From Rhynchopus sp. YZ270_cl-10 (Eukaryota), in contig OZ037840.1 in NCBI GenBank assembly GCA_964035575.1, positions 806,001-870,000 of the forward strand: a DNA stretch of 64,000 nucleotides, written 5' to 3'. This document shows positions 9,499 through 52,984 of this stretch, one piece after another; position 1 is the first letter of the stretch; the number at the start of each line of letters is the position of its first letter. Under the pieces are notes generated by a model, which had not been told where the DNA came from, ran no database searches, and was given only the letters and a program-made list of their open reading frames with translations. The translations under genes were made by a program, and so were the position numbers.

Positions 9499-9916
9499 GT
9501 GTGAAGGGAGGGGGGCAGCCCGGAGAGGGGGGCTAGAGAGCGTGAAAAGGCGATGGGGTAGGTGGACACAGCGTAGTCAAAGGCAAGCTCGAATTGATGT
9601 TATTTTTGTTTTTTTTTTTTTTTTTTTGTGCTGGATGGGGGAAAGGGAATATTTCACAAATTAGGGTTGTAAATGAATGTATTGGGTGGGGGTGGGTGTG
9701 GGGGGGGAGGGTATGGGGCCTTTCGTGTGTTGTTGTGTCATTTTTTTTGGTTCAATCTTGATTGGGATTCCGTGTCATGTCCCCCTTTTATTAGGTGTTC
9801 GTGTCCGCGAGACACTTATTCACAATCTCTATTCGTATTTCAAATCAACTTTATTATTGTGTCGGCGTATGTGAACAAAAGGCGTTTTCACAAATTTTCA
9901 ACTTTTTTTTTCCCCC

Positions 9917-10067
9917 AGATGTTTACCTCGAAAAATGGATGTACAGCTGCATTGGTTTGGGGGGTCCACCCCACGGTGCACCAGTCATGCCAAGGTACAC
10001 TGTCACACAAGAGGGCTGTTGTATTTCAAGTCAACTTTTTGTAGGTGACTCAGCACATAAAGCTTAA
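9917..10067. repeat. Dispersed ~150-200-bp repeat family ending in the GACTAAGC..GCTTAGGTTCATC hairpin; other copies ~13534-13715, 28280-28410, 45440-45620
   Basis: Shared GTACCAAGGTRCACTGTTCACGAGAGGG..GTATTTCAAGTCAA core in four places. Confidence 0.75.
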
Positions 10068-13318: not shown

Positions 13319-13897
13319 TTTTTCTAGAATTTCGTGAATGAGAGAGGGAGGCGAGAGGCTTAGGGCCATCTTACAAAACTTTTCTTTCTTTTTTCGAGCT
13401 GTCGCAAGAGTGATTTGTGAATAATCTGTGGATTACGAAAAAGACAAATTTTAAATTTTTAAAATATCTGGCTTCTCTGTTGGTTGGCTAAGCGACGAAA
13501 CGCTTCATCTCTACTAACCCTTTTTTAAAATCCACAGATGTAAACCACGAAATAGACGTAGGACCACATGGTCGGGGACCCATAGTGGTGCACTGCTCAT
13601 GTACCAAAATACACTGTTCACGAGAGGGCTTTTGTGTTTCAAGGCAATTTTGTTTAAAAATAAGATAAGGTGACTAAGCACGAGAGGCTTAGGATCATCT
13701 TATAAACTTTTCTTTGTTTTTGTTTCCCTTTCTTTTTAAAAACGTGCACGGAGAAGCACATTCACCTTTTCAAGTTTTTTTTTCTTTGTTGAAGTATTTC
13801 TCAAAAAATAAAGGTAAGACCAACCCCTGCTTTCTCATTTGTGTCTATTTTGGAGGTTTTTTGCTTTTTGTGAATTTCTGCACAACGCCCACGCTAG

Positions 13898-21744: not shown

Positions 21745-22469
21745 TGTTGAAAATACTATTTTTTTTTTTTATTATAAGACATGCATGCATTTCTAGTGAA
21801 ATTTTTCAGTATCCACGAGTCGTTTTTTCCCTCCCGTGCTCCCCATCTCTCACACATACATTACATCTTCATCAGGAAAATTGTCAATTTTTCGTTCATT
21901 ATTGTGAACAGCGTTTGGTGTTTTTCAAAAAAAAAAAAAAATGTGTGACTGAGTGTGGGGATGCGTTCAAGAATTAAACTCTTCCCCCCAAACCCCCTTT
22001 CATCTCTAGTTTTCTTTATCCAAACGTCGAGTGGACGCGTAATAATTTTTTTTTGTAAATCAAGGTACTTGACAATAGGAAATAGAAACGACGGAAGGTG
22101 CGTGCCCGCCAGCTTGTGTTTTTCTCATTCATTGTTTTTTCTCTCTCACACACAACACACACTTCAGCGAAAAAACACACCAAGCTTGCGGAGCGATAAA
22201 CGAAAAAAGTTGTTTTTCATTGTTTTCTTTTTATTCAGAACCGGAAGTTAGTTTCTATTTTTGATTTTTTGATAACTTTGTTGGAGTAGTTTGCCTCTGC
22301 TACCAGCTGTGCGATCTCCACTTTTCCAGAAAGTTCATAATGTGCAATTTCAGGTTTTCGAAACAACAAAGTTACTGATCCAGAGATTGAATATTTTTCA
22401 AAGCACGAGCCTTCTTGGGCACTTTACACCAGACTGCACCTTCCCCACACCCACCCTATTTTGGCAGTA

Positions 22470-24865: not shown

Positions 24866-26318
24866 ACAAAAAAGAATTCAATTATGGGGGTGATTCCTTA
24901 AGAGAGGTTGATTTGATTGTGTTTTTGTGTTTTTTTTTTGGTTCACTTTAGTTAGTTGAATCTTATCGGGGGGGTTTTTTTTTGGTGTGTTTCACTGTAA
25001 ACGGAAAATGGAAAAAGAGAGGTTTGTCGGTAATTAAAAAAGGAACTGATGTATTAGGTAATCTTTACCTAGTATTGAAAAGTGTGGTTCGAAACAAAGG
25101 AAAAAACGCTTTATCTAGGTGTGTCTCATGAACAAAAGACTGCGGTCTTCTGGTGATTAGGAGCTTTGTTGTTGTTGGTATTGTTAAATTGCTTGGAGCA
25201 GTGAGTTACCTCGGCGTGTGTTGCTGCAGGTGTGCAATCTCTTGCTTTGGTGCTTTCATCAGATGGCTGGCACCGTCCGTGGGTCAGTTGGAGGTGCCTG
25301 CATCAGCAAACGATTATTTTTGTTGCATTTTTTGGATCCCATTTGCATCCACCTTTCCCCTTCCATAAAAAAAACCCCAAATCGGTTCACCCGGGTTTTT
25401 TCAAAAACCGGTAAAGCGGGAAATCAACCCCTGGTTTTGGCGATTTTTTTTTGTCTTTTGTGTGCACAGTGATGCACACAGTCATCTTCTTTCAAAATTC
25501 TTTTCAGAACGTGGTCAGAGGCAGTACCAGGGTCAAAGTGCCTGCACTAAACCCGCCTACACTGTTAGGCAGTCTCTAAAAAAGCAGCACGCTTGTTTTT
25601 GAGTAACACAAAAAGACCACCCAAAAATAACCAAAACGCGAACAGAACAAAATATTTGATTTTTTTTTTAAACCAATCAATCCTATCGCTATCCTCCCTT
25701 GCCAGCATGCACTACTTTGTTCAATCATACACAGCAAAACCCCCCAAAGGCGTACCGTTAGCGTGGCGTGCAAGAGAGGAGTGTGTAGACGGGAAGGGGG
25801 GATAAAACCTGTGTAAAAACTGCCGGTCTCGACACACTGGGGTTGTGCCAATCTCTCAAAAAAAAAAAAAAACCCCCCCCCCGTTTTTTTCCAGCTCTTG
25901 AAGGCTTTTTTTTTTGATATATTATTGTTGTTCACAGGATGTGCGTGAGACACGTTCATCTTTCAAAAAATTCTCTGTTGAAGCTCAGAAAATTTCAGTC
26001 GATCCGTATTGATACATAGCTTCGTCGCTTTTTTTTTTCTGGCAGTGTTTGATTTTGATTTGATTTGATTTTTTTTTTTTTTTGTGAAAACAGATGCACC
26101 CACACTGCCTTGTTGTGGATACAATGAATGTGGGTTTGCCGTCTGTCCTCTGAATTAGCAGAGTGTGCTTCGTTTCGTATGTTTTTTTGTCGTTTATTTT
26201 CTCGCCATGTTCCCCCACTCCCACTCCGCTTGTTGTGTTGGTCGCTTGAAAACTATCAATTTTAAGCCTTTGTTCGTCACCTGGTGATATCTTTTCAAAG
26301 TGACTAAGCACGAATTTT

Positions 26319-26657
26319 TTTTTTTTGAACATGATCCACTTTTATTTTTGCAATTTTGATTTTTTCATTCTTTTACAATGTAGGTTTCGAAAACTGTCTG
26401 GGCCTTGAGCGACAGCGGAACACTAACTACAAGTCCACAGAGGGTCATGCACTGATGAAGTCCACCTCTGTTTACAACTAATGTATGCGTTTAGGACTGA
26501 AACATGGACTTGTGGTACAGATGTACCACCCTACAAAAACTTTTGAATATGCATATTTACAAAAAAACAAAAACAAAACAAAAAGGATCCAAAAATACAA
26601 CAAAAAAGATTGATGAATAACCAATGTTCAAAACATTAAGTAATCTAATCAGACTAA
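26319..26657 (+). repeat. 339-bp direct repeat, copy 1 (contains a hammerhead ribozyme)
   Basis: Appears identical to 27899-28237 (offset 1580). Confidence 0.95.
26426..26516 (+). ncRNA. Hammerhead ribozyme candidate with a permuted/pseudoknotted topology; predicted cleavage after GUA at 26485
   Basis: CTGATGA 26452-26458 and GAAA 26499-26502. Stem II AGTCC/GGACT, stem III ATGT/ACAT, stem I ATGCA/TGCGT. Extra helix ACAGAGG/CCTCTGT. Outer stem ACTACAAGTCCA/TGGACTTGTGGT. Confidence 0.82.
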
Positions 26658-27898
26658 CCCCTGTGATACCGCGTCCTAGACGGTCTGTTGGTCGCAGCAT
26701 TTTGTTTGCAACAAGCAGGCAGCCACATAAAACGTAGGAAGTGGCTTTTTTCTGCTTCCAGTAGTAATAAGACCATGGACGTTTTATATAGTTGAATAAA
26801 AATATAAAAAAATATGTGTTCAACCTGGCGGACGAGCGGCTTAGAAACAGATACGCCAGTCCATGAATGCCAGAACATCAATCAAACTTTTCATTCAAAA
26901 GACTTTTTCCTTTTTTTATTTTTTTGAAACAAAACACCGATGAAGACGAACCTGCTGTTATCCAGTGAACGGGTTCCACGAAACAAAAAGTATTCATGTC
27001 TCGCTTCAGTGAACGCGGGGATTTTTGTCTCGCGTACTAATTACGTTGAGAATAACCACGAACAAAGTGTGCCGCAACATTTTTTGCGAAGAGGATATAC
27101 CCGTACACCAAATATCCATTTTCACCTTTTTTTCCTTTTTTTACCTTTTTTTACGGTCAGCCCGGATAATACCGCTACATACTTGGGGAAAGATGTACAG
27201 GCTGTACCCCGAATAACTTTTGTGTACCTTCAGCAACACAAAAAGCGCAAAAATAAGATACACTCATTTTTCTAAGCTTAGCCTGACATGTGGCAAACAA
27301 GAAAACATTGCAACAAGTTGGCGACTATTAAATATCACCAACATGCACCTTTGTTCATCCAAGATAAAAAAAACAAAAGAACCAAACAGATGTAAGCAAT
27401 CAAGACAGCGCTTCTGCATAACAAATGATAGAGTCGATGTCGATAGCTAACTTTTATTTTTTACTTCGTGCCTGATAGACAAGCAATGGCGAGTATGGGC
27501 AGCCAACCCATTCCGACCAAGGGCAAGCTTGGGCGATGAACCCATTAAGACCCACAGGGCGAGCCGGGATATATACCCGAGCCGACCCTGCCCCCAACCC
27601 CCAACCCCCTGCCGAGCCGAGCCGAGCCGAGCGAGTGTGCCGAGCCGAGCCGAGCAGAAAAGACTTGATCAACCAGAGTTACAAAGTTTCTTCATAAAAA
27701 AAGCTAAAAAAATGGTTGAAGATTAAAATGTACTAACAACCTGCAAACCACCTGTGTCACTATTATGCTGACTATCGACCCACGTGGCGAGTCAGTAGTG
27801 GCGTTATATTTGACCTTTTTTTAACAAAGTACCCTGCTATATGCAGAGTAACTGCCTTGGATGAGGTGAGCTACGATCATCCGAAAATATAAAACAAG

Positions 27899-28237
27899 TT
27901 TTTTTTGAACATGATCCACTTTTATTTTTGCAATTTTGATTTTTTCATTCTTTTACAATGTAGGTTTCGAAAACTGTCTGGGCCTTGAGCGACAGCGGAA
28001 CACTAACTACAAGTCCACAGAGGGTCATGCACTGATGAAGTCCACCTCTGTTTACAACTAATGTATGCGTTTAGGACTGAAACATGGACTTGTGGTACAG
28101 ATGTACCACCCTACAAAAACTTTTGAATATGCATATTTACAAAAAAACAAAAACAAAACAAAAAGGATCCAAAAATACAACAAAAAAGATTGATGAATAA
28201 CCAATGTTCAAAACATTAAGTAATCTAATCAGACTAA
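27899..28237 (+). repeat. 339-bp direct repeat, copy 2
   Basis: Appears identical to 26319-26657. Confidence 0.95.
28006..28096 (+). ncRNA. Hammerhead ribozyme candidate, second identical copy; predicted cleavage after 28065
   Basis: Same sequence as 26426-26516. Confidence 0.82.
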
Positions 28238-29191
28238 GCACGAAAGGCTCAGGTTATTTCTCATAATGTTTGGTCCATTTCAGATGTAAACCACGAAAAA
28301 TGGATGTAGGACTGCATGGTTGGGTGACCACCCCCCGGTACAGCCGGTCATGTACCCAAGGTGCACTGTTCACGAGAGGGGGTTGTATTTCAAGGTCAAT
28401 TTTTGTTTTGTCCATTTCAAAAAACCTCAAAAACACCAGGGCTTTCTTTGGACTATATCCTGGGACAGAGCCTATTTAACACAACCCCCAGCCAATTCCG
28501 CCTGAGAACAGGAGTCTACTGGAAGTTGTCCTACACGACGTGGTCCAGGACCAATTTCACTTGTCATGGTGACAACTGAAATGACAAGTGACATTGATGA
28601 GGCACCTCGTGCACTGTGTGTGTCTGGGTGACAGACCCACACCTTGCCACGTCGTGCGACACCACAAGCTTCGCCTCCGTCGCCACCGTGTTTAAATAAG
28701 GCCAAAAAAAGGGAGGGGGGGTTTTTTTTTATAGCATAGCCTTTGTTTTGTTCAATCTACGTTATGTCCGTTTCTTCTCTCTACCCCCCTCTATCATCTC
28801 ACTGTGCTGCGATTGCCCAAAAAAAAACAAAAAACAAAAAAAAACCCCTAGTCGGCTTGCTTCACAATGAGTTATCCCATGACAAATTATCCCTGTTTCG
28901 GTGACTGACGAAGAGAGTTGGATAGGTACTAGGGTGACTCAACGTAGACTGCGACAAATGGAAGTAAGCTGGCGGGAGGGGGAGGTGGGTGTACTGTTGC
29001 AACACGTGATATTTTATTTTATTTTTCGAATTTTTTTTTTTCAAAAAAAAAAAAATAGAAAATACAATGGGGCATCCTTAGACCCCTTGGGTGACATTCT
29101 GTGGCCAACCTATAGCGGGGCCATAGTCGATGCAACAAAAAAACCCCACAAAAAAAATCCAAACAAAAAAATATTGTTGTAACGAAGTCGG

Positions 29192-29448: not shown

Positions 29449-32400
29449 ATGGGATCCGGAGCGTCGAAGCCTGAAAAGGACGAGATTGCAAAGGGAATTA
29501 CTGGGAAGGAGAGGCCCGTGGACGCAGTCGACAGCGTGGACGGGAGGACAATGCTGCACAGTGCTGTGCTTGCGGGAGACGTGGAGGCAGTGCGGTTTCT
29601 TGTGGAGAACGGGGCAGGGAACGTGCGTGACAGGGACGGGAACGTGCCGCTATGGTATGCACTGCAGCACAGGGACGCGGATGTGCGGGGGCGACTTGAG
29701 GCGGAGCTGGGGGCGCATGCAGCAGAAATCCTTGTGGAGGTGGAGGATGCTGTGCAGGTGTACCTCACTCACGGTGTCGCCACAACAACGACAACGACAG
29801 CAACACCAAGAACAACAACAACAGGTGTGGCGGTGGAACGGAGCAGTGGTGATGCAACGACAGCACCTCTTACTGACCCTCACATGGACATGGCGAAAGA
29901 CACGAAGACCTCGACTGAAGACAGGCACCTAGGAGAGGACGATCTTGACGGGGACACGGGTGCACTGCGGCACACAGACGGACGGAAGGTGGAGTGGCTG
30001 CGGAAAACAGAGGACAACAACAACAAGAACGGCAATGGAGGTGAAGACCTGCTGTGCTGGCTGCGTGGTCTGCCAAAGGTGGATCCGCCGTTGGGCTACA
30101 CAGACGAACACGTGCGGCACATGGAGGCGGGGTTCCGTGTGGTGTGCAAGCGTCTGCTGGAGGACATCAGAGGACGGAGGGAGGCTGCGGGGACACGTGG
30201 GCACGTGGAGGTGGAGGACTGGATGGCGGCACGCGACCCGTTTGAGCTGCTGCTGTCGGGGTTCCTGTTCACGTCTGACTGCGTGGAGTATGTGCTGGAC
30301 AGCGGCGGGGATGTTGTGTGCGACGAGGATGACGGGACACCACAGATTGCGAAAGGGCCTGACGGGAAGCTGCGGTACATCAAACTGACGGAGCGGGCTG
30401 TGCTGGACAACCACGGGAGTGCTGCTAATTCACAGTCGCTTGCGCTGTACATGACGATGAACACTGCGATGCGTGCTGTGGGGTGGCTGCCTGCGGTGAA
30501 GGAGTGGAAGGGGACACCTGAGAAGACAGCACCGAACGTGTTTGAGCTGTCGCCTGCACCCCCGCAGCTGCACGTGATTGCGACCTTTGCGCCGCTGATC
30601 CGTGGTCTGGACCGGCTGATTGGGAGCCGTCGGAAGCAGCTGCGGACTGTGTTCCGTGGGATCAATGTAAACGTGTCTGCGAAGTACGCGCTGGGGACGC
30701 ACGTTGTGGAACTGCTTCACGTCGACAACACTGAAGCGGGATGTGGCTCGGAGCTTCATGTACGGGAAGGGAGGCACGTTCTTTGTGGTGGTGGCGAAGG
30801 AGGGTGCTGCAGATGTGAAGTTCTCGTCTGTGTATGCTTCGGAGGACGAGCTGCTGTACACAGCGAACATCGAGTACCGGGTGCAGTGGAAGCTTTCGCC
30901 GACGTTACTGCGGATGATGGGGCTGCGCTTTGACGTGATTGTGATGCAGGAGGTGTGTGCGGATGCGGGTGTGGGTGTGGGGGAGACGAGTGCGGCTGAG
31001 CAGGTGGGTGCGCTGCAGGAGGTGATGGGACACACAGTCGCATTCTTCAAGGACTACCTTGCGCAGTACGTGGAGGGGCGTGTGGGTGACGACACGCGTG
31101 TGGATGAGTCGGAGACAAGTCCGCTGATGGAGGAGGTGCGGAGGTGGCTTCGTGCACGTGGAGGTGGGAAGCAGATGTCTGCAGTGTGCACACAGGCAGC
31201 AGCGCGCACAGAGCGCAAGCCTGATGTGGAGGCAAAAGAAGAAAGACAAGGGACGTGTGGTGTGCTGTGTGTGATCGGAGAAGGAGGGAGCGGGAAGACG
31301 TCTGCTTCGATTGCAATTCTGAGCGACCTTGCAACGTCTGCGAAGAAGAGTGAAGGCACCAGCAACGAAGACACAAACAGGAACAGGAACAGCGTGGTGA
31401 GTGATGTGACTGCGGATGCGGATGCGAAACCATACTTCCCTGTGTTTGTGGCGCTGCCGACTGTGAAGCGGCACCTGCTTGAGAAGGGAGGGCTGGACAG
31501 GTTTGTGCTGGAGTCGTTTGCGCTGCGGGAGGCGGACCGTGCGTACCTTGCGGAGACGTACGAAGTGGTTCTGGTGCTGGACTCGCTAGACGAGGTGGGT
31601 CTGACGCAGAAGAATGTGGGTGCTGTGGTGTCTGAGGGTGGCCTTCTGTGCCGGCACCCGTGGGTGGAGGCACACTGCAGCGTTATTGTGACTGTGCGTG
31701 GTGAGTACCTGAAGGGTGTGGACACGTCTCCGTCTGGTGTGTGTGGGGCTGGTGTGCGTGCTCTGTACATGCAGCCGTTCACAGAGGTGGATGCGAGAAC
31801 GTACATCAAGCGTGCAAACACAGCCTGGGAGAAGGAACACAAAGTGGAGCAGCCAGCCCACAAGGAAGAGTCTTCGTGCGTGAGGAGGACGTTGAGGGAC
31901 TTGTGCAGCTGCGGAACCCGTTTGTACTGCACATGGCGTGCCACGCGCAGTGCAGCGGGAAGGCTTCTGAGGAGGTGATCTACGAGACCTACCTGGAGAC
32001 GTGGACGAAGAAAGAGATGTCGTCTGGTGGTGCTGCTGTTGCTATTTCCGATGTGTCTTTGGAGGATGTGGTGCGTGCAGGGGAGCTTGTTGCATGCAGG
32101 ATGTTGGAGACAAACGAATGGCAGGGGACTGTGGGTGTGGCGTCGGAGGTTCTTGTGTCGCGGCACGGTGTGTGTGAGGCTGTGCGGGATGCGTGCTTCC
32201 GCTGCCTGCCGTTCCGGATTGAAGACTTGGGGGAGGAGCGGAGTGCGTTCACGTTCCGGCACAAGTCGCTTGGGGAGCACCTTGCAGCACGGCGGCTTGC
32301 ACGTGATCCAGCAGGGACACTGAGAACGCTGGTGCAGCGGAGCTTCAGCAAAGACTCGCAGCGTGTGCTTGGGTTCTTTGCGGCGCTGGTGTGTGGAGAC

Positions 32401-37394: not shown

Positions 37395-37851
37395 TAACAC
37401 AAAAAAAAAAAAAGTTTCAAATTTCAAAAAAAACAAAAACCACCTTAGTTGGTACCCATGGTTTTTGCAAAACGAGCCCCTCAAGAACCCCTCACGAACC
37501 CCAGCAAGAACCCCGCAAAATGGGTCTCGAGATGAATATTTTGCCCTCTTTTGTTAGTGTTTTTTGGTTCTTTTGTTTTTGGTAGTACTAGTAGTATTTT
37601 TTTTGATAAATTTTCCACACCTCTCTCACGCAGAACATTTTCTCCCATTATTCTGATACGCTTCAGGGATCTGTTTTGTGCATTGGGGTGTGAGGCTCTC
37701 CTAGTCAAAAAAAAAAATTCAATTTCATTCAAAAAAAAAAGTGCGCAGATGCTTCCCAAAAAGAAATATTGCTCTACGCAGTTGTCGACACAACAAACGC
37801 ATCACATCACCTCCAGGCGCCCCTCCCTTCTTGGACTCCCTCCCACCCACT

Positions 37852-39075
37852 ATGGAAGTCCACATCGAGGAGACCAGCAGCGGTGCCACCTACACCGTCG
37901 TCGTTGGTACCGAGGACACCGTCCGCTGCCTGCGTGCCAAGGTGGCTGCAGCGACCTCCCCCTCCTGCCACACACACCCACCCAGCTCTCTCCCGGACGC
38001 ACCACCGCCACCCCTCCCGCACCTCCTCCTGCACGGCACGCCCCTCGGGGATGACGACACCCCCATCAGCACAACACGACTCTGCAGTGGCGACAGGCTT
38101 ACGGCAGACGTCTCCCCCATGGAGGTGGAGGAGGAGGAGGCTGCCTGTACGTGGAAGCACCCTGCACGATACGAGGCAGGAGGGGGTCTCATGGCGATGT
38201 CCCCCTGTGGAAGGTACTGTGTGCACACCGTGGTGGGGTGTGGCGTTCATATTGTCGATCTGGTGGCAGGAGAGAGTGTTGTGGTGGTGTCTGGAGATAA
38301 GAGCAATGTGGTTTCTTCGTTGGATGTGACGGAACACCACATTGTGTATGCAGTGTACGGAATGTCCCGAACAGAGGTCGCTGTGGTGGACCGGAGAACG
38401 CATTTGACCCTGCAGTCTCTGCATTGTGATAGCGCAGTGACGGCGTTGTCTGCGACGTCAGATGGAGTGTTTCTGGTGGTAAGCTGTTATGCTGGGATCT
38501 GTGTGTTCAATATCTTAACGGCAGAGTGCGTCAGAAAGAAGCGAGGGTATGGACACATTGCGACAGTTTCGCCGTGCAACCGATGGATCGCAAGCTGTGA
38601 TCGGCTGATTGATTTTGAGACATTGGAGCAGATACATCACTTGGGGCACACAGGCACCCCAATTCGAGCACCGGTGTTTTCACCAGAAGGGGATGTGGTG
38701 GCGATTCTGAATGGAGGTGTTGTGGATGTGTTTGCGACAAGAGACGGCACGCATCTGCATCGCACAGGGCACCGGCATATCATCTCTGCGGTGACGTTCA
38801 GTGCGGACGGAGTGTACCTCTTCACAGCCTCCTTTAACCAGGTGGACTCCTGGGTCACGGCATCCCACCTTGCCACCCACTCCCGCACACCCTTCTTATC
38901 GTGCACATCTTCTCTGTGTGGTCTAGCTGTCTCACGCGATATGCAGGTAGCATTGATCCTGGATAGGCAGAAGATCGACGTTGTCAGCAGACGTATCCCT
39001 GATACCAGAACTGCTAGCGTAAAGGATGCAAATAGCAGCAGCCAGGCAAGCAGCAGCGTCTGTCCATGCTGCTGA
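37852..39075 (+). CDS. Ubiquitin-like domain plus WD40-like beta-propeller protein, C-terminal CPCC; paralogue 1
   Basis: ATG chosen by alignment with the 40497 copy. MEVHIEETSSGATYTVVVGTEDTV..LRAKV Ubl-like start. Propeller repeats (MSPCGRY, FSPEGD, FSADG). Confidence 0.88.
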   Translation: MEVHIEETSSGATYTVVVGTEDTVRCLRAKVAAATSPSCHTHPPSSLPDAPPPPLPHLLLHGTPLGDDDTPISTTRLCSGDRLTADVSPMEVEEEEAACTWKHPARYEAGGGLMAMSPCGRYCVHTVVGCGVHIVDLVAGESVVVVSGDKSNVVSSLDVTEHHIVYAVYGMSRTEVAVVDRRTHLTLQSLHCDSAVTALSATSDGVFLVVSCYAGICVFNILTAECVRKKRGYGHIATVSPCNRWIASCDRLIDFETLEQIHHLGHTGTPIRAPVFSPEGDVVAILNGGVVDVFATRDGTHLHRTGHRHIISAVTFSADGVYLFTASFNQVDSWVTASHLATHSRTPFLSCTSSLCGLAVSRDMQVALILDRQKIDVVSRRIPDTRTASVKDANSSSQASSSVCPCC

Positions 39076-39682
39076 GAGGCCAGGGTATCATTTTAGGTGA
39101 CGAAAGAGAGTGCGGTGAAGGTTGTCTGATAAGCGTTCTTTTGGTACCTCCATTGCAGCCTCCCTGGAAGCCGTGTGCCAAATGAAATGTTCTGTCCTAT
39201 GTACACTTTTGGTAATATAAAAAAAACGGTTAAGACAATGCATGTCTTCAGACAGCTGTCGCTTCCCCGACCTCCGTAAAGTGCACATCGAGAGGAGATC
39301 GGGAGGCGATAGCATTAGCTAGTGAGCCCTCGTTTGGTGATACCAGGTGGGGAGGTGGGGAGTTTGGCTGGGGCGGTAGATCTGTTATGCATTAACACAA
39401 CAAACACAACACAACCCCCAGGCCCTTCTTGGACTCCCTCCCACCAGGGGTACCTGTAACGAGGGGGGTAAAAACGGCCCGGCCCCCGGCCCCCGGCCCT
39501 TGGTTATCAAATGGAGAAAATCACGTGTATGTATACACGGTATACACAACGCAACCTTGTGCGCGGGTTTTTGGGTCATTGTTGCCCACAAACGGGCCGG
39601 CATTTGCATTCCGGAATCCGTCCGGCCAGTGGTGGGGTCAATTTGACGAAATGGACAAGTTCTCGTTTTTGGTCAATTTTTG

Positions 39683-40250: not shown

Positions 40251-40496
40251 CAGTGTAAAAAAACTCAAAAATCCCTCTCGCGCCTTGGCGAAAAATGTTT
40301 TTTTTCAAAACCGGCTTTATTTGAAAGATTGAGATCCGCTGACCCCAAAAAACAAAATCGGCCCCAGCCAAGAATAGCTATACAAAAGCAGAATAACGGC
40401 GAGAGCATTTCCCACGTAATTTCTTAAGGGATTTTTCTCGGCCCAGAGGCCCGGCCCGCGGCCCCACGTTACAGGTACCCCTGCCTCCCACCCACT

Positions 40497-41708
40497 ATGG
40501 AAGTCCACATCGAGGAGACCAGCAGCGGTGCCACCTACACCGTCGTCGTTGGTACCGAGGACACCGTCCGCTGCCTGCGTGCCAAGGTGGCTGCAGCGAC
40601 CTCCGCCCCCTCCTGCCACACACACCCACCCAGCTCTCTCCCGGACGCACCACCGCCACCCCTCCCGCACCTCCTCCTGCACGGCACGCCCCTCGGGGAT
40701 GACGACACCCCCATCAGCACAACACGACTCTGCAGTGGCGACAGGCTTACGGCAGACGTCTCCCCCATGGAGGTGGAGGAGGAGGAGGCTGCCTGTACGT
40801 GGAAGCACCCTGCACGATACGAGGCAGGAGGGGGTCTCATGGCGATGTCCCCCTGTGGAAGGTACTGTGTGCACACCGTGGTGGGGTGTGGCGTTCATAT
40901 TGTCGATCTGGTGGCAGGAGAGAGTGTTGAGGTGGTGTCTGGTGAGAGGAGCAATGTGATCACTGCGTTGGGTGTGACGGAACACCACATTGTGTACGGA
41001 ATGTCCCGAACAGAGGTCGCTGTGGTGGACCGGAGAACGCATTTGACCCTGCAGTCTCTGCATTGTGATAGCGCAGTGACGGCGTTGTCTGCGACGTCAG
41101 ATGGAGTGTTTGTGGTGGTAAGCTGTTATGCTGGGATCTGTGTGTTCAATATCTTAACGGCAGAGTGCGTCAGAAAGAAGCGAGGGTATGGACACATTGC
41201 GACAGTTTCGCCGTGCAACCGATGGATCGCAAGCTGTGATCGGCTGCTTGATTTTGAGACATTAGAGCAGATACGGCGCTTTGGCGTGTCTATTCGAGAG
41301 TCCACTAGAGCACCGGTGTTTTCACCAGAAGGGGATGTGGTGGCGATCCCGAGGGGGAACTTTGTGGATGTGTTTGCGACCAGAGACGGCACGCATCTGC
41401 ATTGCACAAGACACGCGAACGTCATCTCCGCAGTGACGTTCAGTGCGGACGGAGAGTACCTCTTCACAGCCTCCTTCGACTCCCGGGTCATGGCATCCAA
41501 CCTCACCACCCACGCCTACGTCCGCACGCTCTTCTTCTCACATAGAACGTCTCTGTGGGGTCTAGCCATATCGCACGATATGCAGGTTGCGTTGATCCTG
41601 GATATGCAGAGTATCCACGTTGTCAGCAAGACCTCGTACACCAGAGGTCATCGCGTAGATGCAAATAGAAGCAGCCAGGCAAGCAGCAGCGTCTGTCCAT
41701 GCTGCTGA
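40497..41708 (+). CDS. Ubiquitin-like domain plus WD40-like beta-propeller protein, C-terminal CPCC; paralogue 2
   Basis: 403 aa. The first ~140 aa are almost identical to paralogue 1, with patchy divergence afterwards. Confidence 0.88.
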   Translation: MEVHIEETSSGATYTVVVGTEDTVRCLRAKVAAATSAPSCHTHPPSSLPDAPPPPLPHLLLHGTPLGDDDTPISTTRLCSGDRLTADVSPMEVEEEEAACTWKHPARYEAGGGLMAMSPCGRYCVHTVVGCGVHIVDLVAGESVEVVSGERSNVITALGVTEHHIVYGMSRTEVAVVDRRTHLTLQSLHCDSAVTALSATSDGVFVVVSCYAGICVFNILTAECVRKKRGYGHIATVSPCNRWIASCDRLLDFETLEQIRRFGVSIRESTRAPVFSPEGDVVAIPRGNFVDVFATRDGTHLHCTRHANVISAVTFSADGEYLFTASFDSRVMASNLTTHAYVRTLFFSHRTSLWGLAISHDMQVALILDMQSIHVVSKTSYTRGHRVDANRSSQASSSVCPCC

Positions 41709-42494
41709 GAGTCCAGAGTTGTGCTGTTCGGGTGCTGTGCATGATGCAGGTAGACGCTGCTCTGTAGGCTGTTCTTGGCAATGCTCAGCACCAATGTGTA
41801 ATCTTCCGCTTTTTAGACACTTTTGATAAGTCAGCGTCAACGTCAAGCCACCACGCAAAGTGGTCTTGTTGGGAATCTCATGGAATCTCTTGCAAAAAAA
41901 AAAAAGGCCTCCTTTCCACACCTTTTTTTCGCATACAACCCAGCCCTGCTAGCTTCCTCCTCCCAAAAATAAGAATAAAAAGGTATCGGTCCCAACTACT
42001 CAAACGTTCTCTCACCCCAGGTTTGCTTAACCTGAGTTTTCATCGATTCTTCCCATTCGTCACCCACCAATGAGATATGGAGAGGAGGGCATAGCTCTTA
42101 TGTGAATGGAGCCTAAGACGGAGATGGATTCCGTGTCAAGACACATTTTTTTCTCGTTTTTCGGTGTGTTGTTACCGACTGCAAAGCGTGCTCCTCCTAT
42201 TTGTTCTCTTTTAAGGATCCTGCGAAGAAATCGTAGCTACCATAAGTAGTCTATAATAAAACAATAGCTTTGGTGGTGCAGCTGAAGGGAGGTGCTATGT
42301 TTGTGCTATGTTCTGCTATGTTCTGCTATTCTGGGCATCTGGATTTTTTGGTGCGGCTGAAGGGAGGGTGCTATTTTGTGCTATTTTTGGGGTCGTCGGC
42401 CACACCAATTTGCCTTGACCATTTTTGTTTTTACATTGATACATTGCATTACCACACAGCTTACACACACCCCACCCTACCACTCTTACCTACG

Positions 42495-45316: not shown

Positions 45317-47419
45317 TATGGTGTATCCCCACCTTTTCAAATACAATACAAAACAAACAGAGTAGCAAAAACAAAAAAAAACAAAAAGCAAACAAGCTTA
45401 CAAACCCCCCCGCCTTTTCACTTCACCTTTTTCTTCATAGATTACATGGTTGAGGGTTCACCCCGGTACAGCCGGTCATTGTACCAAGGTACTGTTCACG
45501 AGAGGGCTGTTGTGATTTCAAGTCAACTTTGTTTTTGGCGTGATTTGCGAAGAACACAAACCAGGAGGGAAATTTTTTGTGAATCAGGTGACTGAGCGCT
45601 TCAGGCTTTAGGGCTCCTCTTTAACAAAATGCTGAAGAAAGGGTTTTGTATTTCAAGTCGACTTTTTCTTCCCCTTTCCTCATGCCTTAATGACTTGAGG
45701 GGTTGATGCCCTGCATTGACTTTCTATGCAGCAAAAACATGGATGAGTGAAAGAGTGTCTTGTATGGGCTACACTCGAACAGAATATCAAAAAAAAAAAC
45801 AAAACAAAAATAGTTAGTAATTTCACGACAATGAAGTAGTCATTTTTTACTCGAGTATGTTTTTTTTTTGCACGCGAGAAAAATTGTATCTGCTGTCCTC
45901 TGGATGAGGGTCTGCAGATTTCATTTGGGTTTTATTTAGAAGGTTCAGAGGTGACCTACGATGTTTAGGTTCACCTTACCAACTTTTATTCCTGTGTTTT
46001 CGATGTGAACCGCGTGCATTTCGTGTGAATTTAGTTCTTCCGATTTTCTTTTTTCTTTTTTTTTCTTTTTTGTGTGAAGAAAAATCGTGGCTGTTATCTT
46101 GTGGTAGTCAATCAAACAATTTTTTGCTTTCCCTCCCCTCTCGATTTCTCCCTCCAAAAAACAAACAAAAAAATAATAAAAAAAATAATAATAACACAGA
46201 AAGGGGAGATGCCAAAGATATGATTTTCCCACTATTGTTGCCTGCATATTTTGCAGCATTTATCATGGGGCAACACTATGCACACAGAGCCACCCCTATC
46301 CCCTAAGTTCCCCTCAAAGGTAACCTATTGCGGAGCTCCCCCAGCCGCCCCAACGTGACATAGCGAAGAAATGCAAAATTGTCCTTCCACACCCACGCAC
46401 GCACACCCTCGGGTTTTTGCTGTTGTGGGGAAAATGGTATTTCTTTGTGCGCACATCAAGGCACATTCTTTCGCAATTTTTTCTTCTTTTAGACGCCCTT
46501 TTTATATGGTTGATGGGTAGAATGTAAAAGGGTGGCTAATCACAGAGGATTGGGTTTCTTCTTCTTTTATAAAAAAAAATGAAAACAAAAGGTGAAATTT
46601 ATTCTGTTCCCCGCGAGACCTATCTACTCTTCTGGGGGTCTCCCTGACTGCGAGATGTGGTCACGAGGGAATTTATCTTTCACATGTTTATTTTTTATTT
46701 TTGGTGTAGGTAGGTGACCCAAGCCAGTGAGTCTTGGGTTCATATTACCATGCCATTTCTCTCTTGTATTCCGGTGGTGTGCTCTATTCTTTATTCCGAG
46801 ATACGTGGACAAGAGGTGCATGGTTCATTTCATTTTATTTTTTTCGCTCTTCCTTGTAACATCTAGTTCCTCTTCTTCGAAACTGTGCTTCCCAGTGTGT
46901 GAGGCCACCTTCCAACCTTCGCTATCTCGTTTTTTTAAATTTGTACGCACACTACTTTTGTGAGCGGAAAGTGTCAACGTCGTTCACTCACCTTAACCGT
47001 GCTGCGCAACACCACCACCCAACATGTGTGGAAGCGTCAACGCATCAAACAACTACAAGAAGGGGGGTGAGGGAACGACAAGGTGACACTTTTTATTTCT
47101 TATCTGCTGAACAGGCCTGGTGCTAAGTGCCATTTCGCCGTTTCGGGTTTTTTCGTAGGGATCTCTTACTCATGTGAAAAAGAAAAAAATAAATGAAGTA
47201 TAGTGGAGCACACTCTAGGGTGGCTACACTAATACAACCAAGTTTCCAATAAATGAAAAAAAAAAAAAAAAAACGGCCTGGGTGTCCTGGGAAAATATGT
47301 TGGGAGTCTTGTATAACTGTGTGGGAAATGCAAAAAAAAAATAATAATAAAAAAATAGTGGAGCTCGCCCTCGGGTGTCGACACTAATACAACTAAGTTT
47401 TCAAAAAAAAAATATTTAA

Positions 47420-48423
47420 CCCTTTATGGACCACGACCGATTTTTTCGATTTGCTAGGATCTTCTCTCCCATAGGTAAAATGAGATCCGATGCATATTTT
47501 TGATCGTACCTGGCCGCAATTGAAAGATTTTGAGCAGATCTTTCAAATGGAGCAGAAATCGAAATAAAATGAGAAAAATGGAAAATTGAAAATTGAGGAG
47601 AGCTGATATTTTTTTCTGAAAATTTTGAAGAAAAAAATTATTCCGGTTGCGTACCTGTTTTTTCGGTTTTCGAAAATGGCTTTATTTGAAAGATCGGTTC
47701 AAAATCTTTCAAAAGAAAAAAAAATCGATCAAAAAGTCCTAGTAGATAATGTCTCACTGCATGGAGAGAAGGTACCAACCAACTATATATACCGTAATTG
47801 TACAGAGGTAGGACAGTACAAAAGTTGGGGCTTTTGGGACTTTTGGCCAACTTGGCCTGGTGCTGAACAAAGGTGAACGCCGCATCCCACGCACATGTAA
47901 TCTGTTTTCAGACGCCTGTTTCCCAAGCAAGAAGAAGTTGTCGACCAACACCCTCCTGCCAGTGTCTCTGTACCTTGACCGTGTTGATATAGATTTTCTG
48001 TACAATGTCCCTCAAAAGACAAAATGCAATAAATACACGGAGAAGAGGCACATCCAGTTCAGGGTCAGGAACTGCAACTACGCGTGTTACTTTGCCCAGT
48101 CGCGGGTATTTTCCATTATTTTGGTTTCGTTCTGAAGACCGTACAAAATGGTTCCCTGCACACCAAAGTTTGAATCCTCTGATGACTCAAGCGCGTCAGA
48201 ATGGTACATTATTCCCAAAAAATGACCCAAAATACCCTATTATGTGATAATGCCGGGTGTGGATGAGAGGGGATGAGAGCGTCAAAAAAAATCGAATCTT
48301 GCGTCTTTTGAAAGATTTCGCACAAAATCTTCTCATTTAAAAAAAAAAATCTTCAAAAAATCCTAGTGGAAGCCAATTTAGGTGGTTGCGTGGACATATA
48401 TGTCCCCTCTGGTCCTTAAAGGG
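47420..48423. mobile_element. piggyBac-like non-autonomous element (1004 bp)
   Basis: TTAA at 47416-47419 and 48424-48427. TIR CCCTTTATGGACCA / TGGTCCTTAAAGGG (13/14). Confidence 0.92.
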
Positions 48424-50044
48424 TTAAAAAAAAAAAAAATGCCCAAATTCCCCACAGTACAAGACCCCTAACATATTTGCAGGCAGTGTACCACATCTTG
48501 ATTATTTATGTTCTCTCCCCTCCAGAGAAAAGCCTTTCAATTCTCCCCCGTCGTCAGTGCCATTTGGCAAATAATTCCCTCCTCCCCGTTTTTGCGGGTA
48601 TTTTTTGAACCATTTTTTTTCTTCCATTACTGTAACCTCCCAGTAACCTCCCCGTTTTTGCGGGTAAAAACACCCCTTTTTTGTGGGCAAAAAGAAAAAA
48701 AAAAAAAAAAAACACAACAGAAAAGGAAATCAAAAAGAAAAGGGGGGCATGATGGCTTGTAGCAGCTGCATAGCCGCTCTGATTATTTTTTAAAAAAAAC
48801 GAGGGTTTTTGATAGGTGTCTACTTTCGCTGCCTCAAAGTGCTCCCTCCCTCAGGAACCGAATAATAAAATTCTTCGAAAAAAAATAAAAAAAAAATAAA
48901 AACCAGTGACAGGTCTCCTGTCTAAGAACAAAATGTTGAAAAAAGCAAAACAAAAAAAAGAAAAACTTAAGTAACGAAGTTAGGGTCATCTTACCAACCG
49001 TTTTTTCTATTGTGTGTATGCCCTGTTTGTGTGATGATTTTTTTTTTTTTTTTTTTGCACACAGATTATCGCTTTTTTGCACAAAGAACGGTGATAGTGG
49101 TGACTGGGCTTTGCCTTCATCCTCGTTTCTCAAATTTCATCGTGATTTTGAAGCACTCAAGGTACCCTTAGTGAAGTTAAGAAGCAGTGCAAGGCATTCG
49201 CGTTGCCCCTCTGCAATCTCTCAACTTACAAAGTACTACAATGAAATGCAATACAAAACAAACAGAGTAGCAAAAACAAAAACAAAAAACAACAAAGTTG
49301 AAACAAACTTTTTGAAGCCCCTCTGCGGTGCCTCGTGCAGGATGGAAAGGATCGAAGGTAACTGTTCTGCTGTCTGTGGGGAAGCTTTTCAAAGGAACGC
49401 CCGCACATTAGTAGTGTCGCCGTTCCATCACCATGGCCAGCCTCTCCACCCAACGACCTCTGCAGAAAGCTGTCTTTTCTCTTTGGCGGGTTCTCGTCCT
49501 GCGTGCTGATCTGCGTGTCTGCTTTGACATTGTGTGTGTTGTCTTGTCTTCTGTGTTGGGTTCTGTGCAGAGGTTGTGACGAGAGAGGACAAAAAAATGC
49601 AACACACCCCTGTGAGCGAACGGAATACGCGTGGGGGCACGTCACTCACATTTTGTCATCTTATAAAGGTGTCTACAATAGCTCCGCTCTTTTTTTTTTT
49701 ATCCTTTTCAGAAAGTAGTGATTGGTTACATAAGGCATGGTCACACTATTCTGGGATAATTTTTTTTAGAACCAGCGTCCACTACGATTGTTCGGTGAGG
49801 CGCTTTATTTTTTTTGCACTTTCAACTTATCTTTTAGGGAAATAGCTACAACTCCCCCTTTTCACAGGGTTGCACTTTGGAGGATATCACAGCGTCTCCC
49901 CCTCTCAGGCAGCCTTTTTCTTCAGATGACCAAATTGCTCTCAAAAAAAAATACAATTGTTTTTAAAAAATACAATTTTCCCCCAATAACTTCTTCCCTC
50001 TAACTCTCTCTCTCCCTCTCTCTCGTTTTCCCTTCCTCCCCCAC

Positions 50045-50591
50045 CAGGCCTCAGCCTAACTGGGGGGGGTAGGCAGGCCAACACGGATTAGGGGTGGTGG
50101 GTCCCCCCCGCCCCCCCGCCCCCCCCTCTGTACACGGTTGTACAGGGGCTGGGCCGAAGAAAAATTTTTCCAACCAATTTTTGCCCACAAAAAATCGAGA
50201 AAAAAAAAATTTTTTTTTCGATTCTCCTGTGTCTGTGCGTGCTGTGATGGGGTCATTTCGCGCTCAGAAATGAGTATTTTTGACCCAAAATACATGTGTC
50301 AGTTTTGGACTGAAAATTTCAAAAATCGTGTAAAAACTGACACATGTATTTTGGGTCAAAAATACTCATTTCTGAGCGCGAAATGACCCCATCACAGCAC
50401 GCACAGACACAGGAGAATCGAAAAAAAAAATTTTTTTTTTCGATTTTTTGTGGGCAAAAATTGGTCGGAAAAATTTTTCTTCGGCCCACCCCCTGTATAA
50501 CTGTGTACAGAGGTGGGGGGGGGGGGGGGGGGGGGGGGGTACCACCCACCCCCCAAGGCCAACATCGGCCGAAAAATTACCCAGAGGCCTG
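50045..50591. mobile_element. Fold-back element: probable hAT-like ends enclosing a ~215-bp-arm inverted repeat
   Basis: Arms ~50091-50306 / 50333-50555 with a 26-nt spacer. Outer CAGGCCTC/GAGGCCTG. Flanks TCCCCCAC / TCCCCCCC (7/8, low complexity). Confidence 0.8.
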
Positions 50592-50688
50592 TCCCCCCCC
50601 CCCCCCTCTCTCTTTTTTATTATTCCAAAGTGTACTCAAAAAAACAATGACTCGACAAAAGTGTTCATGTTTTTACTTTTTATTTTAA

Positions 50689-50759
50689 GCCCTTGCTCCT
50701 TCTGATGAGCGCGGTCGAAGGGCACTTTTCCTGGTCAGGGAGCAGACCGCCGAAACCAG
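50689..50759 (+). ncRNA. Hammerhead ribozyme candidate with the same permuted topology; predicted cleavage after GUC at 50736
   Basis: CTGATGA 50702-50708 and GAAA 50752-50755. Stem II G(C)GCGGTC/GACCGCC, stem III CTGGT/ACCAG, stem I TGCTCCTT/AGGGAGCA. Extra helix GCCCT(T)/(A)AGGGC. Confidence 0.87.
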
Positions 50760-51459
50760 TTTTTAACTTTTCCTTTTCTTTTATTTTGAAAAACACGAAA
50801 AAAGATTCCTGAAGACCAATTGGTCATGGATCCAAAACACAAAAGCAACAACAAAACAAAAAAGCAAATAGTACATTTTTAAAGACCACCAAAACAAAAA
50901 GAGCACAAAGCAAAAACAACAACTTTCTGACAAACACCCCCCCCTCTCAGATCTATATAATAGGTCATTCGAGTGTACACCATGCGTATAAGTCAGGGTG
51001 TTAGCTACTTTTTCGAACTTTCCTGGAGAAAAAAAAAATTCACCAATTCCGGAACCAACTTTTTTTTCCCCTGAAGAAAAAAGGGGGGTGAAAGTTAAAG
51101 CGATGGATATGGCTCACGTGCACACACATCTTTGTTTTGTTGCATCTCATCTCTGTCTCAAAGCGCCTCATTTATTTTTGCCTGCATATTTTGCAGCATT
51201 TATCATGGGGCAACACTATGCACACAGAGCCACCCCTATCCCCTAAGTTCCCCTCAAAGGTAACCTATTGCGGAGCTCCCCCAGCCGCCCCAACGTGACA
51301 TAGCGAAGAAATACGAATTGTCCACCCCACCCATGCGCCCTACACCCTCGGGTTTTGCTGTTGTGGGGAAAATGGTATTTCTTTGTGCGCACATCAAGGC
51401 ACATTCCTTCGCAAATTTTTCTTCTTTTAGACGCCCTTTTTAAATTGTTGATGAGTATC

Positions 51460-51555
51460 CAGTAGGACAATATTGGCGACCAAAAAATTCGCCAATTGCA
51501 AGAAAAACCCCCAAATCCGCCATTTTTTTTGGTCGCCAAGCTTCTTGTCCAACTG
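51460..51555. mobile_element. Short Tc1/mariner-like MITE inserted in a satellite unit (related reverse copy ~18030-18118)
   Basis: TIR CAGTAGGACAA / TTGTCCAACTG followed by TA. Absent from sister units at GATGGGTAGAATGTAAAAGGG. Confidence 0.7.
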
Positions 51556-52814
51556 TAATGTAAAAGGGTGGCTAATCACAGAGGATTGGGTTCATCTGAG
51601 AAACCTTTTCTTTTGCAGTTTCAAAACTCTTTAATTTGATGGGTGTGCACGTGATGCATATTACATCTTTCAGCTTTTTCCCCTTTTTTTGCATCTCATC
51701 TCTGTCTCAAGATGCCTCTTCTCTTTAGAAATAGATGACCAAGCACGAGAGGCTCAGGTTAGTCTTATCAACTTTTTTTCTTTTGCCTGCACATATTTTG
51801 CAGCATTTATCATGGCTTGGTGCACACAGAGCCACCCCTATCCCCTAAGTTCCCCTCAAAGGTAACCTATTGCGGAGCTCCCCCAGCCGCCCCAACGTGA
51901 CATAGCGAAGAAATACGAATTGTCCACCCCACCCATGCACCCTACACCCTCGGGTTTTGCTGTTGTAGGGAAATGGTATTTCTTTGTGCGCACATCAAGG
52001 CACATTCCTTCGCAAATTTTTCTTCTTTTAGACGTCCTTTTTATATTGTTGATGGGTAGAATGTAAAAGGGTGGCTAATCACAGAGGATTGGGTTCATCT
52101 GATAAACCTTTTCTTTTGCAGTTTCAAGTTCTCCTTTTTTCTTTTTGATGGGTGTGCACGTGAAGCGTATGTGATCGTTCAGTTTTTTTCCTTTTCATCT
52201 CATCTCTGTTTCAAGATGTTTCACTTATTTTTGCCTGCACATATTTTGCAGCACTTATCATGGCACGGTGCACAATAGCCACCCCTATCCCCTAAGTTCC
52301 TCAACTCCCTTTTGTAAGGTGACTGAACAGCCTTTCAGTTAATCTTGACAAAGTTTTTCTCTGACAAACTGTTTTGAGACTTTTTATTTTGGATAACGAA
52401 AAAACCGCCCCCCCCGTTATTCCCCATTGCGGAGCTCCCCCAGCCGCCCCAACGTGACATAGCGAAGAAATACAAAATTGTCCTTCCCACCCGTGCACGC
52501 ACACCCCTCGGGTTTTTGCTGTTGTGGGGAAATTGTATTTCTTTGTGCGCACATCAAGGCACATTCCTTCGCAAATTTTTCTTCTTTTAGACGTCCTTTT
52601 TATATGGTTGATGGGTAGAATGTATAAGGGTGGCTAATCACAGAGGATTGGGTTCATCTGATAAACCTTTTCTTTGCATTTTCAAGTTCTCTCTATTTTG
52701 ATGGGCACATTCCATCTTGCAACTTTTTTTTCCTTTGCTGCATCTATCTCTGTCTCAAGATGCCTCTTCTCTTTTGCCTGCATATTTTGCAGCATTTATC
52801 ATGGGGCAACACTA

Positions 52815-52984
52815 CACGACGGTGAAGTAAATCACATGGCATGTGCTTTACATGTAACTTTTTTTTACATGTCCTCACATGTCATTTTACCTGTAAAATA
52901 ACATGTAAGGTAACGTATACTGACCATAAAAAGGTCAACCGACATGTAAAATGCACATGTCATGTCATTTACTTCACCGTCGTG
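52815..52984. mobile_element. 170-bp MITE with CAC..GTG ends inserted in a satellite unit
   Basis: Perfect 18-bp TIR CACGACGGTGAAGTAAAT / ATTTACTTCACCGTCGTG. ACATGT subterminal repeats. Empty site CAACACTA^TGCACACAG in sister units. Confidence 0.88.

Follow-up and report, generated by a model that had tools for sequence, protein, structure and literature searches.

The hammerhead ribozyme can be divided into three blocks, i.e. block C (CUGAnGA), block S (the cleavage site) and block G (GAAA), and the order of these blocks along the chain distinguishes type I (CGS), type II (GSC) and type III (SCG); a reversed cyclic order was later discovered as type SGC, and type CSG was then found by a pattern search (Eckert, Friedrich, Weinberg & Weinberg, NAR 2023, PMC10085705). 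Type CSG is a non-circularly permuted hammerhead, known from two soil-metagenome DNA sequences, named CSG-1 and CSG-2, which differ at 8 positions and self-cleave in vitro with rates of 0.004 and 0.026 per min; its authors have graded the evidence for its biological relevance as weaker than the evidence for type SGC (PMC10085705). Here, we have analysed a stretch of 64,000 nucleotides (nt) from Rhynchopus sp. YZ270_cl-10 (contig OZ037840.1, positions 806,001 to 870,000), which we refer to as “the window” and number from its first letter. The motif that is located at 26437-26505 of the window is probably a type-CSG hammerhead, predicted to cleave its own transcript after A26485, with an identical twin that would be cleaved after A28065; the two copies, which we call “family 1”, belong to the direct repeats of a non-coding element, while a third copy, “family 2”, is located at 50702. 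All three are intergenic, on the + strand.

In the published type-CSG ribozyme, a joining helix of 8 base pairs (bp) is followed by stem I (6 bp), CUGAUGA, stem II (5 bp plus A9-G12), the 3' strand of the joining helix, a 2-nt linker and one strand of stem III (4 bp plus A-U); the chain continues with UC and the cut, the 3' strand of stem I, a 5-nt linker, the 3' strand of stem II, GAAA and stem III again (PMC10085705). The strands of family 1 occur in the corresponding order, i.e. the 5' strand of stem I, CUGAUGA and the 5' strand of stem II, then stem III, the cleavage triplet GUA and the 3' strand of stem I, then the 3' strand of stem II, GAAA and stem III, with a fourth helix of 7 bp (the joining helix, or helix X) that ties together the outer ends of stems I and II. 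The original prediction, made from the letters of the window, had placed the substrate strand inside the “loop” of stem II, next to an extra helix, and this arrangement agrees helix for helix with the published type-CSG alignment; the topology, whose novelty had been implied, was therefore already published in 2023 (PMC10085705), and the window copies, as read from their letters, are further members of a very rare published class. The helices and the core that had been proposed for 26426-26516 have been recovered base for base, including the clamp, given before as 11-12 bp, which consists of 12 bp with one G-U pair. The coordinates of all the features are collected in the table below.

Features of the window that belong to the two ribozyme families and to the family 1 repeat element (positions are those of the window; cut positions are predicted)
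Feature	Position	Strand	Basis or remark
Family 1, copy 1: whole ribozyme domain, including the extended closing stem	26417..26527	+	sequence reading and fold
Closing stem (“clamp”), 12 bp, one G-U	26426-37 with 26505-16	+	duplex energy -17.5 kcal/mol
Fourth helix (helix X, joining helix), ACAGAGG/CCUCUGU, 7 Watson-Crick bp	26437-43 with 26465-71	+	duplex energy -9.6 kcal/mol
Stem I, AUGCA/UGCGU, 5 bp, one G-U	26447-51 with 26486-90	+	sequence
Block C, catalytic core CUGAUGA	26452..26458	+	sequence
Stem II, AGUCC/GGACU, 5 bp; A10.1-U11.1 at the core end	26459-63 with 26494-98	+	sequence
Block S: AUG (stem III), U16.1, A17, cut predicted after 26485, UGCGU (3' strand of stem I)	26481..26490	+	cut position by analogy with CSG-1 and CSG-2
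Block G: stem II 3' strand GGACU, GAAA (26499-502), stem III strand CAU	26494..26505	+	sequence
Stem III, CAU/AUG, 3 bp, plus A26502-U26484	26503-05 with 26481-83	+	sequence
Family 1, second copy, identical; core 28032-38, predicted cut after 28065	28006..28096	+	sequence, 1580 bp downstream of copy 1
Family 2, type-CSG hammerhead	50689..50759	+	sequence, descriptor and duplex energies
Family 2 helix X, 5-6 bp	50689-93/50719-23	+	
Family 2 stem I, 8 bp	50694-701/50737-44	+	
Family 2 CUGAUGA; GAAA	50702-08; 50752-55	+	
Family 2 stem II, 1 + 6 bp, bulged C50710	50709 and 50711-16 with 50745-51	+	
Family 2 triplet GUC, predicted cut	after C50736	+	by analogy
Family 2 stem III, 4 bp plus A-U	50756-59/50731-34	+	
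Upstream direct repeat, similar to a pseudo-LTR; interpreted as the 3' end of a 5'-truncated copy	26319..26657	+	339 bp, 100% identical to 27899-28237
Non-coding body, 1241 bp	26658..27898	+	longest ORF 26928-27272 (115 aa), without Pfam family
Downstream direct repeat with the second ribozyme copy	27899..28237	+	339 bp, 100% identical
12-nt ACTAAGCACGAA	26303..26314 and 28232-28243	+	one occurrence just ahead of the first repeat, the other overlapping the second repeat's end
LTR, long terminal repeat; ORF, open reading frame; aa, amino acids.

Like CSG-1 and CSG-2, the window copies are ordered C-S-G and carry the invariant core letters; in all of them, the three stems directly abut the blocks, the outer ends of stems I and II are held by a further helix, the linker between stem I and stem II is short, and the sequence has been found as DNA, not as RNA alone. 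The cleavage of CSG-1 and CSG-2 also occurs at a site that is analogous to the one predicted in the window (PMC10085705). The core letters C3, U4, G5, A6, N7, G8 and A9, G12, A13 and A14, the pair A15.1-U16.1 and H17 are present in three of the three window copies, as is UA or UC at the cleavage site, and C15.2-G16.2 is retained as well; CUGANGA and GAAA are spaced by 40 nt and 43 nt. The lengths of helices X/I/II/III are 7/5/5/3 bp plus A-U in family 1 and 5-6/8/7/4 bp plus A-U in family 2, and stems I, II and III reach the blocks without insertions, apart from the one bulged C in stem II of family 2. On the other hand, the window copies have no likeness to CSG-1 and CSG-2 outside the core, the linker from helix X to stem III is longer (9 and 7 nt, in families 1 and 2, versus 2 nt) and the linker from stem I to stem II is shorter (3 and 0 nt versus 5 nt). 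Family 1 differs further in its triplet (GUA, not GUC), in its A-U pair at 10.1/11.1, in its short stem III and in an added closing stem of 12 bp; since this closing stem links exactly the points where the published motif has its 5' and 3' termini, its presence appears sterically plausible. Moreover, CSG-1 and CSG-2 come from soil contigs without context, whereas a eukaryotic host and a repeat-element setting are visible around the window copies; cleavage has been demonstrated for the soil pair and is predicted for the window copies.

The type-SGC ribozymes (the HRIMA-1 motif and its variants) share with the window copies the reversed cyclic order, with SGC, GCS and CSG being mutual rotations, but their chain opens elsewhere, and they have been described from metatranscriptomes of presumed circular RNA agents, not from genomic DNA (PMC10085705). 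The term “type-CSG” has not been found in the literature searched outside PMC10085705; judged by title and abstract, the literature on “Diplonema” and “hammerhead” contains nothing on nuclear ribozymes, and the matches listed for “hammerhead”, “ribozyme” and “kinetoplastid” concern engineered or assay ribozymes, or unrelated topics.

A conventional type III reading of family 1, with a cut at GUC 26446, has also been considered and rejected. Only 5 nt separate GUC 26446 from CUGAUGA and, therefore, no stem I hairpin is possible; the would-be stem III is unpaired, with G26443 opposite A26504. The preference of the original prediction for GUA 26485 over GUC 26446 is thus well founded.

The same prediction had reported a copy with the same topology at 50689, sharing with the 26426-26516 domain only the catalytic core, and both points have held: the block order is the same across 50689-50759, and the two families differ at nearly every helix position while the pairing is retained, and they are not alignable homologues. 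The sole match between them outside the core is an A-rich, low-complexity one, with a score of 37, compared with best scores of 32-37 in shuffled sequences. Near the family 2 ribozyme, we have noted a 433-bp palindrome (50103-50535; 92% identical to its own reverse complement), located directly upstream of a poly-C tract and the ribozyme; dense dispersed or tandem repeat units of about 150-430 bp, with 79-98% identity, have been recorded over 46233-55667, downstream of the family 2 ribozyme, and this repeat array contains no descriptor match.

The descriptor that we have built for this fold asks for CUGANGA, UH and GAAA in that order; stems I and II must each have 4 bp or more, with one bulge tolerated in stem II, stem III must have 3 bp or more, and every stem has to abut the core. 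It matches the 64-kb window exactly three times on the + strand (26452, 28032 and 50702) and has no match on the - strand, while dinucleotide shuffles of the window have given 22 matches in 1500, i.e. 0.015 per window; a fourth helix of at least 5 bp accompanies six of these 22, and in a separate run of 300 dinucleotide shuffles, six contained a match. A scan for the fourth helix finds it, with 6-7 bp, in both of the unrelated window families. Of the simple spacing patterns, CTGATGA N5-35 GAAA occurs once, with 1.58 matches expected by chance, and the N35-65 pattern occurs five times, with 1.52 expected, three of the five being the 26452, 28032 and 50702 sites. Two overlapping pattern matches on the - strand, at 21804 and 21826, fail the descriptor. 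Rfam has no match in the whole window at the gathering score and none in 26300-26650 at E<=10; the four weak matches in 50600-50850 at E<=10 do not include a hammerhead family, the Rfam hammerhead families being types I, II and III, HH9 and HH10.

The nested minimum-energy fold of family 1 has an energy of -32.9 kcal/mol (z = -1.89; nine of 200 shuffles are as good). It extends the closing stem out to 26417/26527 and keeps helix X, and the centroid fold likewise has the closing stem in its long form, together with helix X; these two helices are crossed by stems I and II, which a program for nested folding therefore cannot display. GUGGUAC AGAU GUACCAC (26512-26529) can be read as a possible 7-bp hairpin, overlapping the 3' strand of the closing stem at 26512-16; it might compete with the outer part of the closing stem.

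The family 1 element is about 1.9 kb long and non-coding, it is oriented like all the genes around it, and it consists of two identical direct repeats, spaced by 1580 bp, each with a ribozyme that is located 141-232 nt from the 3' end of the repeat. The 12-nt ACTAAGCACGAA occurs on both sides; the repeat itself ends in ACTAA, so that the duplication measures either 12 nt or, with ACTAA taken as 5 nt of microhomology, 7 nt (GCACGAA). The two occurrences are either a flanking duplication or the halves of a split hairpin motif (described below). By eye, we have found no convincing primer-binding site (PBS) or polypurine tract (PPT) in the body of the element, for which no formal search has been made. 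Folded as a circle, the 1580-nt unit has an energy of -373.6 kcal/mol, compared with -348.0 +/- 8.5 in 24 shuffles (z = -3.0), which gives modest backing for a structured RNA; given the identical repeats, the ligation junction of such a circle would have the same letters as the genomic sequence.

Contigs from public sequencing runs, possibly not independent of the source of the window, have been surveyed over 26000-26890 for depth, joints and loose ends. In the contigs of run X3, the unique flank (26096-26346) has a depth of 125 and the exact ribozyme contig (26386-26530) a depth of 7800; the summed depth of the 26600-29 bin is 318,609, the last 55 nt of the repeat (26603-26657) being far commoner than the rest, and 22 contigs diverge right at 26657. 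Run X7 contains the body-to-repeat junction, with a slightly different body, as well as a contig where the last 55 nt occur alone, with GCAATGAG on either side (an 8-nt flanking duplication). Exact copies of the ribozyme region are present in contigs of X3, X6, X7 and X8. The run contigs point to a dispersed, often 5'-truncated repeat family, whose 26603-26657 tail may be common to other elements, possibly including an autonomous partner.

A motif of about 35-45 nt around GACTAAGCACGAGAGGCT occurs five times in the window (10047-10064, 13672-13689, 28232-28249, 51737-51754 and 55869-55886), always on the + strand and between genes; none of 100 shuffles has reached five occurrences. Two of the four intact copies that have been folded form a hairpin (z = -5.3 and -2.9). 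The family 1 element sits within one copy of this motif, the halves being located at about 26297-26314 and 28238-28260, and the hairpin motif lies beside the 3' end of the element in contigs of other runs too; it may be a preferred insertion target or a common 3' structure. A repeat of about 125 bp (9916-10042, 13535-13655, 28281-28408 and, in part, 45445-45537; 78-83% identity between copies) is a close neighbour of the hairpin motif, located just upstream at two sites and, in the case of 28232, just downstream.

The layout of the element can be compared with several groups of ribozyme-bearing retroelements. Penelope-like elements insert as partial tandems that form pseudo-LTRs (pLTRs), are frequently truncated at the 5' end and have hammerheads in the pLTR, close to the 3' end, and their non-autonomous derivatives share this layout (Craig et al. 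2021, PMC8557442). The window element has features of such a derivative, or of a non-LTR retrozyme, i.e. a partial tandem with one ribozyme per repeat near the 3' end and no coding capacity. Among the Penelope-like elements, Naiad and most Chlamys elements are stated to be without canonical hammerheads, while eight Naiad families are flagged “HHR_half_core”, in which 35-50 nt separate CUGANGA from GAAA (Craig, Yushenova, Rodriguez & Arkhipova, MBE 2021, PMC8557442). We have read four Naiad consensus records from the supplement of that paper by eye, with no tool, and in three of them, i.e. Naiad-2_Nbra, Naiad-3_Nbra and the preceding record, all from Nippostrongylus brasiliensis, the 3' end can be read as a full type-CSG hammerhead, composed of a joining helix (7-10 bp), a stem I ending in UUA/UAA, a stem II (4-5 bp), GUC, a linker (3-4 nt) and a stem III (4-10 bp). 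The 3' region of the fourth record, Naiad-3_Dst, has no clear type-CSG parse by eye. These Naiad ends resemble the window copies in the order of the fold, in the spacing of CUGANGA and GAAA and in the position of the motif near the 3' end of elements whose insertions form pseudo-LTRs, but the Naiads are autonomous animal elements, with an open reading frame (ORF) for an endonuclease (EN) plus a reverse transcriptase (RT), whereas the window element is non-coding, comes from a protist and has its ribozyme about 140-230 nt away from the 3' end; the authors of PMC8557442 recognised no hammerhead fold in the Naiad ends. The Naiad folds support, without proving, a Penelope-like origin of the window element.

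The non-LTR retrozymes of animals, and the minimal type I hammerheads in the pLTRs of Penelope-like elements, are likewise non-coding, hammerhead-bearing units in tandem or partial tandem (PMC7229834; 10.64898/2026.07.22.740005), and it has been proposed that animal retrozymes self-cleave to unit length, circularise and rely on the enzymes of Penelope-like elements (same sources). Their hammerheads, however, are of type I (CGS) and their units measure a few hundred nt, whereas the window has type-CSG hammerheads and a unit of 1580 nt, in a protist. Plant LTR retrozymes have direct repeats of about 350 bp, each with a hammerhead, a non-coding body and a proposed circular RNA (PMC4918200), as in the window, but they are distinguished by a type III hammerhead, a PBS and PPT and 4-bp duplications (PMC4918200; 10.64898/2026.07.22.740005); the element, with its type-CSG hammerhead and a flanking repeat of 7-12 nt, is not a retrozyme of the plant LTR type.

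According to the mechanism that we propose, the element would be a non-autonomous retroelement that has been inserted as a partial tandem, i.e. a truncated copy followed by a full 1580-nt copy (26658-28237), in the pseudo-LTR layout of Penelope-like elements and retrozymes. Its transcription would occur by read-through in the one-strand, polycistronic gene cluster of the host. In the transcript, the closing stem and the joining helix would fold first, as a nested scaffold, on which stems I and II would then dock as pseudoknots; cuts after A26485 and A28065 would release a unit-length RNA of 1580 nt (26486-28065), which might be circularised and then copied into DNA by a reverse transcriptase encoded elsewhere, by analogy with retrozymes. 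Cutting in the intergenic part of a polycistronic precursor should be cheap for the host, and this would explain insertions in the sense strand. A comparable logic is seen in trypanosomes, where L1Tc elements carry a ribozyme similar to that of the hepatitis delta virus (HDV) at their 5' end.

Several observations weigh against the type-CSG assignment or against the proposed origin of the element. In family 1, stem III is limited to 3 bp plus A-U, with a duplex energy of -0.3 kcal/mol, and the A10.1-U11.1 pair occupies a position where G-C is usual; the published type-CSG ribozymes are themselves slow, at the rates given above (PMC10085705). The nested fold of family 2 is not better than its shuffles (z = +0.73), which is expected of a pseudoknot, although no support is gained from it. 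A metagenome scan with the family 1 pattern, leaving stems I, III and X free, has given 34 loci, none of which passes the descriptor or matches the element by BLAST; these are chance matches. The sole variant of family 1 that we have seen is a loose end of 29 letters in run X3, where CUGANGA is kept and 10.1 (a pyrimidine) and the outermost base of stem I are changed, the partner strand lying outside the view. As regards the element, none of the 41 window ORFs scanned with Pfam has a reverse transcriptase or a GIY-YIG endonuclease, and the identical 339-bp repeats could in principle be an assembly duplication. The putative Penelope-like assignment comes from the layout, and an enzyme of the long interspersed nuclear element (LINE) type would also explain the 5' truncation and the 7-12-nt duplication.

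This last point leads to the alternative where the ribozyme is correctly identified and the element is a passenger of a LINE-type (non-LTR) reverse transcriptase, similar to a short interspersed nuclear element (SINE) and not Penelope-like, its A-B-A layout having been produced by rolling-circle copying of a circular RNA or by a tandem master copy. We consider this origin somewhat unlikely: the great excess of the 3'-terminal 55 nt, together with the 55-nt copy that is flanked by an 8-nt duplication, is the classic picture of 5' truncation, the flanking duplication of 7-12 nt shows ACTAA microhomology between the target and the 3' end of the element, and the genome paper of Diplonema papillatum lists LINE-1 and SLACS reverse transcriptases, the word “Penelope” being absent from it; but Penelope-like elements are strongly 5'-truncated as well, pseudo-LTR partial tandems with a hammerhead near the 3' end are their hallmark (PMC8557442), and the three published Naiad consensi read by eye end in type-CSG folds. 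The activity of the ribozyme can be questioned separately, in that the motif could be a real type-CSG hammerhead by descent, now a catalytically weak or dead relic on a repeat that spreads without needing it. The A-U pair and the 3-bp stem III of family 1, the X3 variant with a pyrimidine at 10.1 and the low published rates are all consistent with such decay, and Naiads proliferate without canonical hammerheads, which may merely parasitise Penelope-like elements (Craig et al., PMC8557442). Yet, both copies in the element are intact and identical, all the invariant core letters are kept in two unrelated families, the fourth helix and the long closing stem are kept at a cost of sequence space, and exact copies of the ribozyme region recur in the four runs named above, all of which makes a relic distinctly unlikely.

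It is very unlikely that the motif has been co-opted by the host as an RNA-processing site between the genes of polycistronic precursors, with mobility being irrelevant: the intergenic position of both families, on the coding strand of a one-strand gene cluster, would suit such a function, but family 1 lies within a dispersed repeat with a flanking duplication, whose copy number far exceeds that of the unique flanks, the motif occurs in only two of the many intergenic regions of the 64 kb, and in such organisms, trans-splicing and polyadenylation already separate the mRNAs (D. papillatum genome paper). Least credible of all is a stable hairpin without any ribozyme, where the closing stem and helix X are real and the core letters and the other pairings are coincidental. 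The nested minimum-energy fold does use just these two helices and is modestly better than shuffles (z = -1.89), but the hammerhead fold accommodates both of them, so that they are no alternatives to it, the match with the published architecture is exact, and two unrelated sequences, each with a fourth helix, pass a descriptor that is expected 0.015 times per window.

If the type-CSG assignment of the window copies is correct, two unrelated sequences with all four helices would support this fold independently of the original soil pair, and they would provide its first visible biological setting, i.e. a eukaryotic nuclear genome and a repeat element that is laid out like ribozyme-bearing retroelements; the accessory closing stem is an added feature of family 1. 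For structural and kinetic studies of permuted hammerheads, they would also provide two short constructs of natural origin, one of which brings its own closing stem. The published Naiad descriptors assume the three circular permutations, which, together with the type-CSG folds read at the three Naiad ends, suggests why the clade was reported without hammerheads. Tentatively, as a possibility that falls short of an expectation, we suggest that type-CSG ribozymes are the overlooked ribozymes of Penelope-like elements of the Naiad/Chlamys type and of their non-coding passengers, occurring from nematodes to diplonemids and hence ancient in eukaryotes; in diplonemids, such passengers would ride without promoters on polycistronic transcripts, and their paired ribozymes would excise a 1.58-kb RNA, to be circularised and copied back into hairpin-shaped targets.

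The genes of the window are eukaryotic; they encode a four-domain ion channel with EF hands, a mitochondrial carrier, WD40 and ankyrin proteins and a cyclase. Thirteen of the 14 long ORFs that have been scanned are on the + strand, ten of them with Pfam families, and all the Pfam-bearing frames are on this strand; the genome of D. papillatum is described as having unidirectional gene clusters, polycistronic transcription and 52% repeats, in a text that uses neither the word “ribozyme” nor the word “Penelope” (D. papillatum genome paper). The best named homologue of the mitochondrial carrier is from D. papillatum (59% identity), and unnamed transcriptome proteins reach 74%; this homology and the arrangement of the genes on one strand suggest a diplonemid-like host. 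Two WD40-type genes (37836-39086 and 40481-41719) share 89.6% identity over 1264 bp, which points to a recent duplication in tandem. Lastly, for the frame at 30671-31975 (+), which overlaps other long frames, Pfam gives weak matches, below its cut-offs, to an ADP-ribosyltransferase exoenzyme domain and to a STAND NTPase (E ~0.003).

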